From NCBI GenBank assembly GCA_050293845.1, contig JBNKNM010000183.1:1-11575 (forward strand): DNA of 11,575 bases. The letters are read 5' to 3'. The notes beneath the pieces are model-generated. The model was not told where the DNA came from. It did no database searches and was given only the letters and a program-made list of their open reading frames with translations. A program made the position numbers and the translations under genes. Source of the stretch: Pseudobacteriovorax sp. (GTDB lineage: Bacteria; Bdellovibrionota_B; Oligoflexia; Oligoflexales; Oligoflexaceae). Below, piece by piece: positions 1 to 11,575 of this stretch (the first letter of the stretch is position 1; every line of letters starts with the position of its first letter).

Positions 1-635
1 TATGACCTATGCTCATAAGACAATGCAGTATATCTGGTTCAATCGCTACAAAATAAATTCCTCTAACAACCCCATCATAGATCCCTATTGTTCCGCTGCT
101 TGGCGCATCAATCCCCTAATCATCTCAAAAATTAACATTTCCAATGAGGAAAAGTTAACTCTAGCTAACCTTTTGGACTCTGATGATTATATATATCCCG
201 AAAAGATCATAAAATTTGTCAGGGATTTGATCAACTCTGCCATGGGAAGACTTATAGATCTAAACGATGCCTCTTTGATCCATGGTCATACTATTGGTGA
301 TAGAGAAGCAGTTAAATTCAGGGCTGAGCTGCTAAGCTGCTATCGCCGACTGAAAAGTCCGACCACATTTTACTAAGAATCCACCCTACACCAGAGGGTA
401 GGTGCGTCTAATCTGGAAGTCAGGGAGCAATTTCAGATAAATTAATAGACTAAGTTGAGATCTAGCTTTTATTTACTTTAGAAACGTTGATTTTTTGATG
501 CTTCTAAAGCCTCTTTCAAGGAAACTAACCTAAAACAAACTGTATTGGGAGTTTAAGTATTTTTTGGAGAACTTTTTTTCTTAATTTCATGGTTTTAACG
601 CTCCGTCCTCTCTCTCCTCTCTCTCCCCCCCTATT
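1..635 (+). mobile_element. Y1-transposase element copy A (3' part plus right end)
   Basis: 61-339 matches 9063-9341 (20 mismatches in 279 nt by hand count) and 296-604 matches 6591-6900. It ends in ACGCTCCGTCCTC(tc-stutter)CCCTATT at 598-635. Confidence 0.8.
2..376 (+). CDS. C-terminal half of a Y1/HUH (RAYT / IS200 TnpA-like) tyrosine transposase, 5' part outside the window
   Basis: YAHKTMQYIWFNRYK...NP..DPYCS resembles the RAYT 'YI-x-x-N-P...P-x-D-Y-x-W-SS' catalytic-Tyr region, and HGHTIGDREAV resembles the 'G-x-x-LG-x-x-x-F' tail. Copy B joins this C-terminus to a Y1_Tnp-like N-terminus. The ATG at 2 is probably internal. Confidence 0.7.
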   Translation: MTYAHKTMQYIWFNRYKINSSNNPIIDPYCSAAWRINPLIISKINISNEEKLTLANLLDSDDYIYPEKIIKFVRDLINSAMGRLIDLNDASLIHGHTIGDREAVKFRAELLSCYRRLKSPTTFY

Positions 636-744
636 GGAGAGCAGTCGCAGCTGCTTGAAGCATAAAATTCATCGAGCCTTTATTGAAATTAAATGATCAT
701 TCACCATAATCTTAGCAAACTAACGAATGAGTCGAGGAAGAATT

Positions 745-4891: not shown

Positions 4892-5081
4892 TTTATGTAT
4901 CCAAGCTCTGTAGTAGAAATACCAAGCAATCAGTCCTAACGATAAACCACCATAATTCTAGTTGAAGTTCATCGTAATTTCTACATTCTTACAAGTTTGC
5001 GACATATATAGTACATCTACCGGCTTTGCTGCAACTGATGGACAACGACGATGATAGTTCACACGTACCAGCTGCTTATGC

Positions 5082-5350
5082 GGCACAGGTGCATACTTTT
5101 GTAACATACTAATATTATTATCCGCATCAAAAGTAAAATTTACCGTAAATTTAGGTGGTTGAAAGAACTTAAATTATCTGATCTTTTTAAGCATGTGGAT
5201 AATCCAAGAAATAAACAAGGACTTATTTATCCCTTAGCCTTTATTTTAAATTGTGCTCAGTAAGCAATTCTTTGTGGTGCTTCTGGATTTAAGCAAATCG
5301 GTGAATGGATAAATGCTCAATCCTATTCACGGATACCGTTGAATTTGTAG
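5082..5350 (+). mobile_element. Truncated ISAs1-like insertion sequence (left end plus transposase 5' fragment)
   Basis: Begins with the TIR-like GGCACAGGTGCATACTTTTG shared with the MITE and is followed by a transposase N-terminal pseudogene. No right TIR seen. Confidence 0.7.
5159..5350 (+). pseudogene. ISAs1-family (DDE_Tnp_1-associated domain) transposase N-terminal fragment
   Basis: Hand translation LKELKLSDLFKHVDNPRNKQGLIYPLAFILNCAQ*AILCGASGFKQIGEWINAQ matches the 'F..V.DPR...G..Y.L..IL......A.LCGA.G...I.EW' pattern. In-frame TAA at 5261-5263. Absent from the ORF track. Confidence 0.75.
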
Positions 5351-5484
5351 CATCATAAGCCATTTTCCCAATCACAATTGTAGATAAACCATTGCCGATG
5401 TTAGATATAAAAACTGAAAGTGGGTAAATTAATCGATTTCTTGATTCAATTTTATAAAACATAATCTATCGAAATTTCCTAATT

Positions 5485-5928
5485 TCAGACCGTACGTTCG
5501 AATCTAATTGCGGGACAGTTTTCTTCATTCTCGGAACTTTCTTCCACCGCTTTGAATCCATGTTTTTTGTAAAAACTAGTGGCTCTATGATTTTCGGCAA
5601 ATGTCCAGAGTGTAAGGACTCCTTCTGATTTTTCTATTGCTGCTTCGAGGAGTTTTGACCCTAAACCTTGCCCAACTTGTTTTGGGGCAAGATAGAGATG
5701 CTCAATCCAGCCACTACCAAAGATAACAAAACCAGTTACAGAACCGTCCATGGCAAAAGCAACAATAATATGAAAATTTGGAGCTACCTCATTTTCAATA
5801 AATCTTTCGAAACTCTCCTTTGTGTACTTGTGTTCTATAAAAGGGAGAGTAAAGCGCCGACTTTCCTCCATAACATGACCAATTTCCTTGTAGTGTTCTT
5901 TTTGCGCGTCTTTCAAAACAAAATTCAT
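5485..5928 (-). CDS. GNAT-family N-acetyltransferase
   Basis: WIEHLYLAPKQVGQGLGSKLL (acetyl-CoA motif A) and LWTFAENHRATSFYKKHGF. Confidence 0.9.
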   Translation of the reverse strand: MNFVLKDAQKEHYKEIGHVMEESRRFTLPFIEHKYTKESFERFIENEVAPNFHIIVAFAMDGSVTGFVIFGSGWIEHLYLAPKQVGQGLGSKLLEAAIEKSEGVLTLWTFAENHRATSFYKKHGFKAVEESSENEENCPAIRFERTV

Positions 5929-5931
5929 AGT

Positions 5932-6213
5932 TTAATCCTTAATTTCTGATTCTAATTGGACAAGAGCTTGTTCTTCAATAGCCGTTGCCATCGACTGAAC
6001 TGTTGAGCATTCATATAGTTGCCAGAGACCTAATTCAATACCTAATATTTCTTGGACCCTGGACAATATCCTCGTTCCCAGGAGAGAGTGCCCGCCAATC
6101 TCAAAGAAATCGTCATGAATTCCAACTTGTTCTATAACTAAAAGGTCTCCCCAAATCTGACAAAGTGCTTCTTCAAGTTCGTTGGTCGGTGGTAAAAAGG
6201 TCCGAGTTTTCTG
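5932..6213 (-). pseudogene. 3' remnant of an NRPS: terminal peptidyl-carrier (phosphopantetheine-binding) domain
   Basis: PPTNELEEALCQIWGDLL..EQVGIHDDFFEIGGHSLL is the A-T linker plus PCP with the conserved Ser. The first ~68 codons of track ORF 5932-6417 look non-homologous and run into element copy B, so the 5' boundary is approximate. Confidence 0.78.
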
Positions 6214-6375
6214 CGAGATTTCACGGAAGATTTTGACGATAGATTCGTCAACACAACAAACTTTACAGCAGACTCTCCTTGGTTTGAGTACCGCCTTGAA
6301 AGTAATTATGGTTCTGTGAGTAGTAACGGCTATCTTTATAGTGGAACATCGAGACAAAATAGAATGTTTCTCTTG

Positions 6376-6984
6376 TTTCTCTGAACAGAGCGCTTCTACA
6401 TACGCAGCTCTATCCATTTAGGTCAGCGACAATCAATGTCACTGGAAACTAGTCCTAAAAACTGTCAATTTTACAATCATGTATTCAAGAAAGCAGATAT
6501 TGTCAGACAACTCATATTCCCATGTATTCTTCAGATGCCACAACAGGCAGTTTTTACTGAAACCTAGGCATGTGAAAGATTACCTTTTGCGGTGATCGAA
6601 AAGCAGTTAAATTTAGGGCTGAGCTAATAAGCTGCTATAGCCGACTGAGAAGTCCGACCACATTTTACTAAGAATCCACCCTACACCAGAGGATTGGTGC
6701 GTCTAATCGGGAAGTCAGGGAGCAATTTCAGATAAATTAATAGTCTAAGTTTAGATCTAGCTTTTATTCACTTTAGAAGCGTTGATTTTTTGATGCTTTC
6801 TAAAGGCTCTTTTAAGGACATGAGCCTAAAATAAATTGTATTGGGAATTTAAGTAGTTTTTGGATAACTTTTTTATTTAATTTCATGGGGTTAACGCTCC
6901 TTCCCCCCTCTTTCTCCCTCTTTGCTTAATACCATTACTTTGACGCTCCGTCCTCCCTATTTTCGTCCTCCCTCTTCTCCCTCT
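6376..6984 (+). mobile_element. Y1-transposase element copy B: non-autonomous, internally deleted, both ends retained
   Basis: 6376-6525 matches 11423-11575 (left end and gene start) and 6591-6900 matches 296-604 (gene end and 3' region). The right-end motif is repeated at 6894, 6939-6961 and partially at 6964-6984. Confidence 0.85.
6479..6671 (+). pseudogene. Internally deleted Y1 transposase (N-terminal 38 codons fused out of frame to the last 26 codons)
   Basis: 6479-6595 reads MYSRKQILSDNSYSHVFFRCHNRQFLLKPRHVKDYLLR*, resembling the Y1_Tnp start 'R..R....YHV..RGNNRQ.IF'. 6591-6671 reads GDRKAVKFRAELISCYSRLRSPTTFY*, matching the end of ORF 2-376. Confidence 0.8.
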
Positions 6985-7025
6985 AACAAGAAGGTCTGGG
7001 GACACCTAACAAAAGCATTAGGGAC

Positions 7026-7628
7026 CTATTTTTTTAGTGTTAGTTTCGATGCGGCATCGGTATAACGGTAGAGGTTTTCCACTTGAACTCCCTCGGGAAT
7101 CTTGAGGGTAATCTCGTTTGCGTTACCATCAACACCAATAAAAATTTCTTTCACATCTTTCTCAATGGAAATATTTACGATATCGTTGTTCCCATTCACG
7201 AAATTACAAAAACTACTGATAGCTTCCTCTGAATTGAGTTGTACATCCACCTGATTGCGATTGCCCTCAATCAGAACGATGCTATCACTATCAAGAAGGA
7301 TGGATTCATTGAGATTGTTCTCATTGAGCCGCACAGACCCTGTCCCCTCGTCATCGTCTTCTTCTTCGTCCATGCGACAGTTCTCTTTGATGAAGGGTGC
7401 ATCAACATCAATGATGTTAAAATCATAGCTTAGCTCCTGCTGCAATTCGCTATCAGAAGTCGGCGCATCCACAGGTGTAATTGGATTTGTCGAGCTAGCA
7501 TCATTGCTTATTCCTACTTGCTCTACGGTTTTTTGTCCTGTTTTTTTTTGATCTAACAAGCCATTCCCACAGGCTGCAATAGTCATCGTGAGGCCCATAG
7601 TTGTCATCATTTTAAAGATCGTTTTCAT
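7026..7628 (-). CDS. Putative lipoprotein of unknown function, acidic, with short (I/V)xGNxN beta-solenoid-like repeats
   Basis: Lipobox IAA-C at Cys20, SD AGGGG, and repeats IEGNRN, VNGNND, VDGNAN. Confidence 0.7.
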   Translation of the reverse strand: MKTIFKMMTTMGLTMTIAACGNGLLDQKKTGQKTVEQVGISNDASSTNPITPVDAPTSDSELQQELSYDFNIIDVDAPFIKENCRMDEEEDDDEGTGSVRLNENNLNESILLDSDSIVLIEGNRNQVDVQLNSEEAISSFCNFVNGNNDIVNISIEKDVKEIFIGVDGNANEITLKIPEGVQVENLYRYTDAASKLTLKK

Positions 7629-7764
7629 TTGTCATCCCCTCTAAATTGAACTTTGATTCGAGTGTTCCGTTTGAGTCTCATGTTCCATAGGCTCCAGGTC
7701 CTGTAACTCTTAATCCTCCGCTAGTGAAACTGTCCTCTAGTTCTTGACCTTACCTACATTAAAC

Positions 7765-7792
7765 GTTTCGGGTTCTATATCACTGAAATTGA
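7765..7792 (-). promoter_or_regulatory. Possible sigma28-like promoter for the lipoprotein gene
   Basis: Minus strand TCAA-N16-CCCGAAAC against consensus TAAA-N15-GCCGATAA; weak match only. Confidence 0.2.
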
Positions 7793-8168
7793 AAAGTATT
7801 TTCCCTGCCTTAATTTCAGTGTAAAATCAGCTAGTAACAGATGCACCAAACCAATTAATTAGCGTTCTATTTTTTAAACTAGCATTTTAAATTGTTTAGA
7901 ATCTATATTAAACTATGTAATATTAGATAGTTATGGTATTAGTTCACGTATGCGTTCTAGAAATGATTTTTTCCTTATTTTTTAATAATAACCATCATCC
8001 TAGAGCAAACCTTGTTAGGGCTGGCTTATCTCTGTCTAAACGTTAGTCACCATTTATGAGTTGTAATAATGCTTTGTATTTCCTCTTGGGCTTCAACTTG
8101 ATATTGTAGAGCCATAGCACAGCCACATCTATTATTCAAACCCAGGTGAGTGCTCAGGAAGAGTTACT

Positions 8169-8948: not shown

Positions 8949-9062
8949 CAATAAGGGACGATACTTCTAGCTAACCAATTTTCGTTCAGTTATGTCAAGT
9001 ATAACTATCATAGAATCCTGTGAAAGGAATTTATGGATTCGCTGCTTCGTAGATGATCACAC

Positions 9063-9500
9063 CTCTAACAACCCCATCAAAGATCCCTATTGTTCCTCTG
9101 CTTAGCGTAGCAATCCCCTAGTCACCGCAAACATTAACATTTCCGATGAGGAAAAGTTAACTCTAGCTAACCTTTTGGACTCTGATGATTATATTTATCC
9201 CGAAAAGATCATAAAATTCGTCAGGGATTTGATCAACTCTGCAATGGGAAGACTTATGGATCTAAATGATGCCTCTTTGATCCATGATCATACCATTAGT
9301 GATCGAGAAGCAGTTAAATTCAGGGCTGAGCTGCTAAACTGAGGTCTAGCTTTTATTTACGTTAGAAGCGTTGATTTTTAGATGCTTGTAAAGCTTCTAT
9401 AAAAAAAACTAACCTAAAATAAATTGTATTGGGAGTTTAAGTAATTTTTTGAGAACTTTTTTGCTTAATTTTATGGCTTTGACGCTCCGTCCTCCCTATT
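9063..9500 (+). mobile_element. Y1-transposase element copy C: 5'-truncated, decayed, right end retained
   Basis: About 93% identical to 61-339, with TGG>TAG at 9103-9105 and a 118-bp deletion near 9335-9341. It then matches 450-610 and ends TTTGACGCTCCGTCCTCCCTATT (9478-9500). Confidence 0.85.
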
Positions 9501-9587
9501 CTAAATGTTTTGGTAAGGATCGTAAGACTACTAGAAAAGGATTTCCAGTACGAATGGACCACGACTGACCCTGAAAAATTATTCTAA
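9501..9587 (+). pseudogene. Possible orphan 3' gene tail (28 codons)
   Basis: Open frame LNVLVRIVRLLEKDFQYEWTTTDPEKLF* starts at the element end, and its stop lies 4 nt before an intrinsic terminator. Confidence 0.4.
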
Positions 9588-10568: not shown

Positions 10569-11296
10569 AGCTACTCCTAATTCATAAATTTTCGTTGATA
10601 TGACCTATGATATATCGAATTAAGCTTATTCCCTCTACTAATTTGACTCTCAAATAATAAGGCTCTTAGCAAGGGAAAACTTCAATTGTTGATTCCATCC
10701 AGACTTGATTACGAAATTGAGATCTTTAAGCCACTGATAGGAAAATGTTTATTGAAGGGTCGCTGATTTTTGAGTTGAATTGACTTTTGTAAGATTTTCG
10801 CTTTATGTCGATTTGATCAAGTATTTTAATACTATGAGAATTTATATTTTAGGTTTGTTTCGCAACCCTCGCTGATTATATCTGTGATATCAACCTGTTA
10901 GTCATATTTTTGATTTTACCCTTAACATGCTATAATCATAGTATTAATCAAGATTTAAAAATAGAGAACAGTAATAAATTCACAGCGATTTTCAGTGATA
11001 TTTGGGAGAGATTTAAACTCTCAAAGTAATTTAACATTACCCGCCGGAATTCCCCCACTAAAGCTCACAGTCCAAAGAACGATTGAGTTAAATGGGGGAT
11101 GGATAGGCGGATTGTGATCCGAGCAATTGCGAGGTGAGTAATCATTTTGTAGTGTACTGCCAACCCGAGAATCCAACTTCCCGTCAATCTTTTGACATAG
11201 ATTAAGCCAGTTTTGCAAGTTCAATTTGAGAATTCATTTCTCTCCATGTCTGTTTTCTTCTCTCTCGGGCCTTTTCTAACTTCATTTCTCTGGATT

Positions 11297-11443
11297 TCTC
11301 TGAACGGAGCTGGATCTCTGAACGGAGCGATTCCAGATTTCTCAGATCTCTCTGAGATCTCTCTGAACGGAGCGATTCTGATTTCTCTTTTCTCTGAACG
11401 GAGCGATTCGATTCCTCTGGGATTTCTCTGAACGGAGCGATTC
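11297..11443 (+). repeat. Five direct copies of TCTCTGAACGGAGC(GATTC), the reiterated left end of the Y1 element
   Basis: Starts at 11297, 11315, 11360, 11391 and 11425 (periods 18, 45, 31, 34). A single variant copy occupies the equivalent position in copy B (6378-6396). Confidence 0.9.
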
Positions 11444-11528
11444 CACATACGAAGCTCAATCCATAAAGTCAGCAGTAACCACTCAATGTCACTGGAACCT
11501 AGTCCTAAAAACTGTCAATTTTACAATC

Positions 11529-11575
11529 ATGTATCCAAGAAAGCAGATATTGCCAGACAACTCATATTCCCATGT
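11529..11575 (+). CDS. 5' start of Y1/RAYT-like transposase (partial)
   Basis: ATG at 11529 reads MYPRKQILPDNSYSH..., homologous to 6479 onward. Intactness beyond the window is unknown. Confidence 0.65.
   Translation, partial: MYPRKQILPDNSYSH

Follow-up and report, generated by a model that had tools for sequence, protein, structure and literature searches.

The window analysed here is the whole of contig C183 (11.6 kb) of a Pseudobacteriovorax genome assembly (G000; 6.68 Mb in 741 contigs, 41% G+C). It carries four defective pieces of one repeat family, one of which, copy B (positions 6376-6984, + strand), is non-autonomous and derives by deletion from a ~1.07 kb element, similar to an insertion sequence (IS), of an Oligoflexales-type genome. 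By gene family and by predicted fold, the intact element encodes a RAYT-type Y1 (HUH) nuclease/transposase. Both of its ends carry the pentamer CGGAG, which is found at fixed positions and inverted at the two flanks in 11 of 12 related elements, together with arrays of end fragments that have fixed outer boundaries, and conserved hairpins are absent from the ends. The interpretation that we favour, with moderate rather than high confidence, is that the protein reads the pentamer as a tag, which fixes how far from it cleavage occurs at either end of the element.

Copy B and the pentamer at the element ends

Copy B was compared by BLAST with the full, intact copy on contig C7 of the same genome, hereafter the master, which measures ~1.07 kb from first left to first right unit. 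Window positions 6374-6590 correspond to master 1-220 and positions 6591-6915 to master 733-1059, which places an internal deletion of 512 bp (master 221-732) at 6590/6591. The left arm (6376-6590, + strand) spans the left end, the 5' leader and codons 1-38 of the Y1 gene (ATG at 6479; protein match of 6479-6592 to residues 1-38), while the right arm (6591-6915, + strand), delimited by BLAST and protein match, comprises the last 27 codons, a stop codon at 6669-6671 and ~250 nt of non-coding spacer. Residues ~39-207 are lost, including the HUH motif (H60/H62) and the catalytic Y120. The junction is confirmed because contigs assembled from public sequencing runs continue past 6590 into full-length gene sequence. 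An earlier note on this DNA had described a minimal non-autonomous copy that keeps both ends and lacks the catalytic middle of the gene, and the comparison with the master agrees with that description at the same junction; the end sequences and coordinates that it gave are exact.

The left-end unit of copy B (6376-6396, + strand), recognised by sequence, by BLAST to the master and as a repeat family, consists of an outer pyrimidine-rich stretch of 9 nt, TTTCTCTGA (6376-6384), the core variant ACAGAGCG (6385-6392) and then CTTC. It is abutted by a truncated extra left-end unit, TTTCTCTTG (6367-6375, + strand), in the same nested pattern as the left arrays discussed below. On the right, a first unit (6872-6923, + strand; sequence and repeat family) is collinear with the master and has a degenerate core, CGCTCCTT (6893-6900). 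A second, nested unit (6921-6984, + strand; sequence, genome core sites and repeat family) has an intact core, with TTTGA at 6939-6943 preceding CGCTCCGT at 6944-6951, which is followed by CCTCCCTATT at 6952-6961 and a CT-rich tail.

Taken alone, the inverted core of copy B is not above chance, as it matches at only 7 of 8 positions and six further inverted pairs of 8-17 nt are found in the same 751 nt; its significance rests on recurrence. Exact ACGGAGCG sites number 99 in G000, where about 88 are expected from composition, and roughly half of them lie in two stereotyped contexts, a left type with a pyrimidine-rich 5' flank and a right type with a purine-rich 5' flank on the bottom strand. 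Recurrence among relatives was assessed in 12 elements with both flanks, that of G000 and 11 from Oligoflexales/Bdellovibrionota genomes and metagenomes, at 38-56% protein identity (the genome scan gave 10 loci and the metagenome scan 7, and the logos rest on about a dozen elements). In 11 of the 12, the top strand reads CGGAG at 60-140 nt before the gene and CTCCG at 184-264 nt after it. When all pentamers were scanned without prior choice in the same elements, CGGAG again came first, found upstream on the top strand and inverted downstream in 11 of 12, ahead of the overlapping GGAGC in 7 and the best unrelated pentamers in 4. The tag is also present in L006, a homologue of 40% identity. Thus the inverted 8-bp core proposed in the earlier note is real, recurs genome-wide and is inverted in homologues (11/12), but only CGGAG, five of its eight bases, is conserved.

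Alignment of the ends of the 11 tagged elements on the pentamer, with left ends read on the top strand and right ends on the bottom strand, places G at position -3 in 10 of 11 left and 10 of 11 right ends, C, G or A at -2, A or T at -1 and C at +6, for a family-wide consensus of G-S-W-CGGAG-C. The inverted segment reaches 8-14 nt with at most one mismatch in most elements. Between the gene end and the right core, the spacer is near-constant in length (184-264 nt, mostly 242-264; window 6669-6943 and 14 homologous elements). On the other side of the gene, many family members have a conserved box, tGTCAYTnGAa, located after the left core and ~40-50 nt before the ATG (window 6440-6460 and 11490-11510; upstream regions of L004, L005, L018-L020, L023, L024 and L026), which may be a promoter or operator; a consensus scan of 6300-7050 returned no promoter and no terminator. 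The pentamer is also found in another packaging in G000, a dense array of short GTTA-CGGAG-CG units (contig C202, 9980-10194) that lies 1.1 kb from a left-end copy.

The structure of the ends was evaluated by folding 60-nt windows at the gene-proximal cores as single-stranded DNA, on both strands, against dinucleotide shuffles. The 11 elements have 22 ends and gave 44 folds, among which both strands of the palindromic G028b left end stand apart (z near -7.7), the bottom strand of the G024 left end reaches z -2.51, and the other 41 lie between +1.3 and -1.4; on the tag strand, 21 of 22 ends fall within this last range and only the G028b left end (z -7.7) stands out. Ends in the window fold at -2.2 to -5.4 kcal/mol, with z-scores of +0.59 to -1.30 except for that of a 4-bp mini-hairpin, GACG-CTC-CGTC, which sits in a G-poor context and is the sole structure predicted at the G000 right end (-2.2 kcal/mol). 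At the left end of G000, a 5-bp stem immediately follows the core on its 3' side (-2.9 to -4.4 kcal/mol). The homologues share neither register nor position for these small stems, and no flanking hairpins of 20-40 nt with a GT[AG]G tag, the hallmark of repetitive extragenic palindromes (REPs), were found at the window ends or at the 22 ends. The folds therefore bear out the earlier statement that the ends have no GTAG-type REP and no strong or conserved hairpin. Hairpin-less ends and a conserved inverted core also mean, as had been suggested, that recognition of the ends cannot simply follow the pattern of IS608/ISDra2 or of E. coli REPs.

A hairpin inside the 3' spacer (6771-6805, + strand), ~105 nt after the stop codon, has 12 bp and folds at -8.6 kcal/mol in the intact copy and folds at -5.7 kcal/mol (z -2.17) in copy B; it was rejected as a conserved internal hairpin because homologues show nothing consistent in position or strength. 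In L012 (contig C489 of G028), the left end lies ~85-135 nt upstream of the gene and forms an inverted doublet of 27 nt, nearly perfect, with the tag on both arms, similar to a REPIN (-20 kcal/mol, z -7.7), and weaker versions occur in L025, L029 and L030.

Arrays of end fragments adjoin most family members. When the arrays of G023 were decomposed against the gene-proximal unit, all 11 left units were found to begin 8-12 nt 5' of CGGAG and to have variable inner stops, and all right units to stop 10-14 nt after CTCCG, with variable inner starts and often 1-6 filler bases at the joints. Similarly, all six left units of the C7 copy begin 10 nt 5' of CGGAG, and the left array of the window (11270-11460) and the doubled ends of copy B are of the same form. 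Judged from sequence, no better markers of the termini, and presumably of the cleavage points, are available than these fixed outer boundaries. The boundaries are symmetric about the element, as expected if both ends are processed alike on opposite strands, and in G024 the outer 10 nt are inverted as well. Right ends are prolonged by CT-rich, microsatellite-like tracts with units such as CTCCCTCTTT and ACCACTTTCT (window 607-645 and 6952-6984; C7 61050-61260), and the left array of L018 contains a long (CTCTAG)n tract.

The Y1 transposase and its decayed copies

The intact gene on C7 encodes a protein of 234 residues, P0001, that matches the Pfam family Y1_Tnp (PF01797) at 47.8 bits against a cut-off of 23 (E 2e-12). 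It scores under the cut-offs of two NCBIfam models, with 41.8 bits (cut-off 80) for the REP_Tyr_transpos equivalog and 31.9 bits (cut-off 55) for transpos_IS200. P0001 has the HUH motif (H60-A-H62) and a single catalytic tyrosine (Y120) on a C-terminal helix; among 68 relatives, H60, H62, Y120 and N124 are invariant and R100-E101-R102 and R125 nearly so. The tyrosine motif reads Y120-I-W-F-N124-R125, with a nearly invariant arginine in the position of the class 2 proline. An AlphaFold model of P0001 (pLDDT, a per-residue confidence score, 92) finds its best match among solved folds in E. coli TnpA-REP bound to REP (4ER8; Z 15.6, root-mean-square deviation 2.4 A over 155 of 165 residues), whereas IS608 TnpA reaches Z 8.9 over 103 residues, and Foldseek likewise ranks TnpA-REP over IS608 TnpA (IS608-type match, E 4.5e-05). 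The link to 4ER8 comes from fold searches only, as a PDB sequence search with P0001 returned no match at E <= 1.

No C-terminal helix-turn-helix (HTH) domain from Pfam is detected in P0001 at E <= 0.01, and HTH leads in the Atlas are weak (0.76-0.77); C-terminal Bac_DnaA_C or HTH_23 domains are present in 4 of 25 sampled, more distant relatives. Relatives amount to 122 clusters at E <= 0.001 in one library and to 44 representatives at E <= 1e-30 in another. The named ones are records of Oligoflexales, Bdellovibrionota or Pseudobdellovibrionaceae metagenome-assembled genomes, and some bear the JGI label 'REP element-mobilizing transposase RayT'. G000 has a second, divergent Y1 paralogue (contig C284, 3936-4619; 34% identity) with one in-frame TGA and flanks without CGGAG tags.

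The 21 protein matches in G000 fall at about 20 loci on 19 contigs, with unrelated flanks. Five different internal deletions are represented among the copies, and solo end units without gene fragments occur on C161, C179, C213, C312 and C135. In two public runs, the summed contig depth of the element region is many-fold above that of the flanks, a sum to which other organisms may contribute. The picture is thus one of an old IS-like family, mostly decayed, with derivatives that resemble miniature inverted-repeat transposable elements, copy B being one.

The other three pieces in the window, all on the + strand, show the same decay. A copy cut by the contig start (1-645) retains the last 124 codons, the spacer, a right core at 599-606 and a CT-rich tail, and a third, doubly deleted copy (9062-9511) joins master 497-776 to 890-1052, with a right core at 9483-9490 and the element end near 9499. 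At the other extreme of the contig (11270-11575), at least six nested left-end units, with CGGAG at 11305, 11323, 11368, 11399 and 11433, precede the 5' leader and first 15 codons (ATG at 11529) of a copy cut by the contig end. Repeat finding in the window returned four right-end units (576-627, 6872-6923, 6921-6972 and 9460-9511) and listed five members of a left-end family, four of which are true units (6363-6396, 11345-11378, 11376-11409 and 11410-11443); the fifth (7143-7176; 65% identity, no core) was set aside as a likely chance match.

A search of the whole window against Rfam gave no matches. A direct repeat of 94 nt (2273-2366 and 5078-5171; 87% identity) has no relation to the Y1 element and probably marks the end of a different IS family, also decayed. 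Short frames after its second copy look like remnants of an ISAs1-type transposase. Copy B lies directly upstream of a gene on the minus strand (5932-6417) that encodes a PP-binding (carrier protein) domain. The frame nominally starts within the left end of copy B, but its domain occupies residues 83-147, so that the true start probably lies further in.

Readings of the ends

In the interpretation that we favour, the ends are short imperfect inverted repeats around an invariant pentamer, with the termini at a fixed 8-14 nt outside it. The protein would read the pentamer as a sequence tag, equivalent to GT[AG]G in REPs and to GGGGWSAS in the repeats of TIRYTs, and the tag would position the tyrosine active site to nick at a fixed distance, on opposite strands at the two ends, with no stable hairpin needed. 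Repeated nicking specific to the ends, with subsequent rejoining or slippage, would then have left the nested end arrays as scars. Alternatively, an array may originate when a new copy inserts into a resident end region and the two genes subsequently recombine; both origins fit the geometry. Of the two possibilities raised in the earlier note, a bipartite stem between the cores or protein-bound sites, the latter is the better fit to the family-wide consensus, and the nested arrays, with their constant outer limits, also speak for it. A bolder version of the tag interpretation is possible, though we consider it doubtful: a hairpin-free Y1 HUH transposase that reads the bare CGGAG and nicks opposite strands 8-14 nt outside it, with the arrays as in vivo footprints of cleavage and abortive strand transfers, and with the A/T asymmetry beside the tag, described below, telling left from right. 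If true, this would be a way of processing ends symmetrically, in the style of inverted repeats, that no Y1 enzyme has been shown to use.

Several observations weigh against a protein-read tag with a fixed offset. The tag is absent from the homologue L015 within the flank windows examined, the single exception among the 12 elements, and relatives at 34-38% identity, including the broken G000 paralogue, also lack it. In G000 and G023 the outer 10 nt lack the inversion and instead share a short motif (TTTCT and TGAAGT, respectively) that runs in direct orientation at the two ends, which a purely symmetric model does not explain. Such direct outer motifs recall the flank and tip cleavage motifs of IS200/IS605 elements. 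An IS608-like arrangement, with a direct motif at the left flank and the right tip, fits G000, G023 and perhaps G024, and was rejected as it does not fit L018 and L020. Comparison of window 5400-8000 with G001, a genome of the same genus, gave no match and so no empty site from which to fix the termini independently. Six public runs contained part of the stretch, and contigs of four of them held no flank-to-flank (excision) joint or circle junction; what they showed was limited to short skips within the right-end array and to loose ends that run on into full-length copies or additional left units. The copies in G000 are 85-95% identical to the intact copy, and among the matches listed only the C7 gene is intact, so activity of the element in this genome may be ancient. 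The literature searches turned up no biochemistry of the CGGAG-tagged family or of any TIRYT. Finally, the pentamer often sits inside a 9-nt near-palindrome (GCTCGGAGC) or the 4-bp mini-hairpin, for which reason a minimal hairpin stabilised by the protein has to be weighed alongside a bare tag.

One alternative holds that the left core pairs with the right core ~1 kb away in single-stranded DNA, forming a panhandle whose foot presents both cleavage sites in the manner of a giant REP hairpin. On one strand, the ends are indeed complementary over the pentamer in all 11 tagged elements, and over 8-14 nt in G000, G024, L024 and L026, and both termini lie at similar distances from the paired bases. 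Furthermore, CGGAG and CTCCG are 18-40 nt apart on the left side alone in G028b, L025 and L029/L030, where local pairing is possible (G028b, -20 kcal/mol, z -7.7). A stem of 5-8 bp that closes a 1-kb loop would, however, have negligible stability without protein, and in G023, L018 and L023 only five contiguous pairs are left. Outside the pentamer, cognate ends agree at 7.55 of 20 positions versus 7.18 for non-cognate ends, a value reached by 5888 of 20000 permutations, and comparison of sequences thus gives no sign of the element-specific covariation between left and right that a stem predicts. Position -2 is concordant in 9 of 11 elements, in three states that track subfamily, and position -1 is discordant in 7 of 11, with A at one end and T at the other, a pattern noticed after the fact. 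Any left-right stem would therefore have an A.A or T.T mismatch beside its five invariant pairs in these seven elements. With a pentamer that never varies, sequences alone offer no way to make the decisive compensatory test. The bipartite stem of the earlier note is left unsupported by the absence of covariation and by this recurrent mismatch, and we regard the panhandle as decidedly improbable.

REP and IS200/IS605 enzymes recognise folded structures, and a second alternative is that this enzyme still does so, through a tiny fold of the pentamer near-palindrome or a weak hairpin just inside the pentamer. The same seven elements bear on this idea, as one of their ends is the perfect 9-nt palindrome GCTCGGAGC; the other end has a mismatch in the palindrome, and the cores of G024, L024 and L026 are not palindromic at all. 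The mini-hairpin of the G000 right end, the 5-bp stem beside the G000 left core and a 9-bp hairpin just inside the right core of L026 would all suit such recognition, as would the 'atypical', weaker structures without GT[AG]G that Quentin et al. describe for TnpA-Y1 subclasses 2.6 and 3 (PMC6006769). The register nevertheless varies, with a GAG loop in G000 and a CGG loop in the GCTCGGAGC type, stems of 3-4 bp with loops of 1-3 nt are unstable, and the fold of the G028b left end is the only one of 22 on the tag strand to depart from shuffled sequence; minimal hairpins are accordingly an unlikely basis for recognition. A further possibility concerns the nature of the element itself, which could be a domesticated RAYT with REP-like cargo repeats (a REPtron or TIRtron) rather than a usual IS, the G000 copies being products of duplication and decay and not of transposition of the whole unit. 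The JGI name of the relatives, a fold nearest to TnpA-REP, the one to three matches in most relatives' genomes, the solo end units listed above and the REPIN-like inverted doublet in G028b are all consistent with domestication. In G000, however, the repeated unit is the gene together with its ends, found at ~20 loci with unrelated flanks and in deletion derivatives that keep both ends; there are only tens of tagged units rather than hundreds, most of them joined to remnants of the gene; and many metagenomic relatives are on contigs of ~1 kb, as for multi-copy elements. Domestication consequently has a small probability in our assessment.

Comparison with known systems

The general kind of element described here, a RAYT-type enzyme with inverted repeats in place of REPs, has precedent. 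TIRYTs and TIRtrons were named in 2013 by Di Nocera et al. for RAYT-like genes with inverted repeats unrelated to REPs, some of which share the motif GGGGWSAS and some of which form clustered repeat families (PMC3733652). Quentin et al. (2018) equated most TIRYTs with TnpA-Y1 subclass 2.1 (group 1 of Bertels), for which a C-terminal HTH domain (Bac_DnaA_C, HTH_23 or HTH_28) is the hallmark and Y-x3-N-P the class 2 tyrosine motif, and described subclasses 2.1 and 2.3 as lacking flanking REP-like structures and subclasses 2.6 and 3 as having only atypical ones (PMC6006769). Group 1 is, in the account of Bertels et al., the most IS-like among the RAYT groups proper, groups 1-5 (PMC5581495). To call the arrangement unprecedented is thus an overstatement, given TIRYTs and TIRtrons (PMC3733652) and the subclasses without REPs or without GT[AG]G (PMC6006769).

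The family resembles TIRYTs and subclass 2.1 in its RAYT-like Y1 protein of ~235 residues with a C-terminal extension, in a gene flanked by inverted repeats rather than GTAG-REP hairpins (11 of 12 elements), in repeats that are sometimes clustered and form moderately abundant families, and in the HTH hallmark of subclass 2.1 in 4 of 25 distant relatives. It differs in the shared motif (CGGAG, within G-S-W-CGGAG-C, versus GGGGWSAS), in an inverted part that is very short (5-14 bp), in the lack of a Pfam HTH hit in P0001, and in a tyrosine motif that reads Y-x3-N-R in place of Y-x3-N-P. A further difference lies in the nested end arrays with their fixed outer boundaries, which go unmentioned where PMC3733652 describes TIRYTs. 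Subclasses 2.6 and 3 also have flanking repeats without GT[AG]G, with weak, atypical structures found by manual inspection (PMC6006769), but they are reported as proteins of ~178 residues with other motifs (YIH[QN]NP and YV..EQ) from Bacteroidetes and from Planctomycetes/Acidobacteria/Proteobacteria.

E. coli TnpA-REP and the REPtrons (RAYT group 2) provide the best structural match (4ER8) and share inverted flanking repeats and a short conserved tag beside the recognised DNA. REPtron repeats are GT[AG]G-tagged hairpins (PMC6006769) of 20-40 nt with the tag at the 5' side, read as single strands, and GTAG is read by the protein, possibly as a guide (PMC8266576), whereas the ends described here have no GTAG and no conserved hairpin. 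In addition, the W-Q/E motif is R-E here, the REP_Tyr_transpos score is below its cut-off (41.8 < 80), and the element is multi-copy with the gene inside. With IS200/IS605 elements such as IS608 and ISDra2, the family shares the Y1 HUH core fold and the form of an IS-like multi-copy unit with deletion derivatives and no evident target duplication. Those elements have similar, same-strand subterminal hairpins and a Y-x3-Q motif, in contrast to the inverted, hairpin-less ends and Y-x3-N of this family, which also scores under the NCBIfam IS200 cut-off (31.9 < 55).

How RAYT-like Y1 enzymes without REP hairpins recognise and cut DNA is a question that concerns the large TIRYT/subclass 2.1 group and its kin, and the CGGAG-tagged family is a compact natural data set for addressing it, with an invariant 5-nt tag, termini marked by arrays at a fixed offset and a high-confidence model close to TnpA-REP. 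Copy B, a natural mini-element of 609 bp, could serve directly as a substrate. The family lets one ask whether sequence alone can guide HUH Y1 nucleases, which bears on the origins of REPs and REPINs and on applications in which HUH enzymes serve as sequence-specific DNA tags. Within the collection of papers searched, there was no description of CGGAG-tagged ends or of such a family, and nothing relevant in Oligoflexia/Bdellovibrionota. Set beside the systems above, what distinguishes this family is the tag itself, the very short inverted segment, the Y-x3-N-R motif, a protein with no detectable HTH, and the well-defined nested end arrays.

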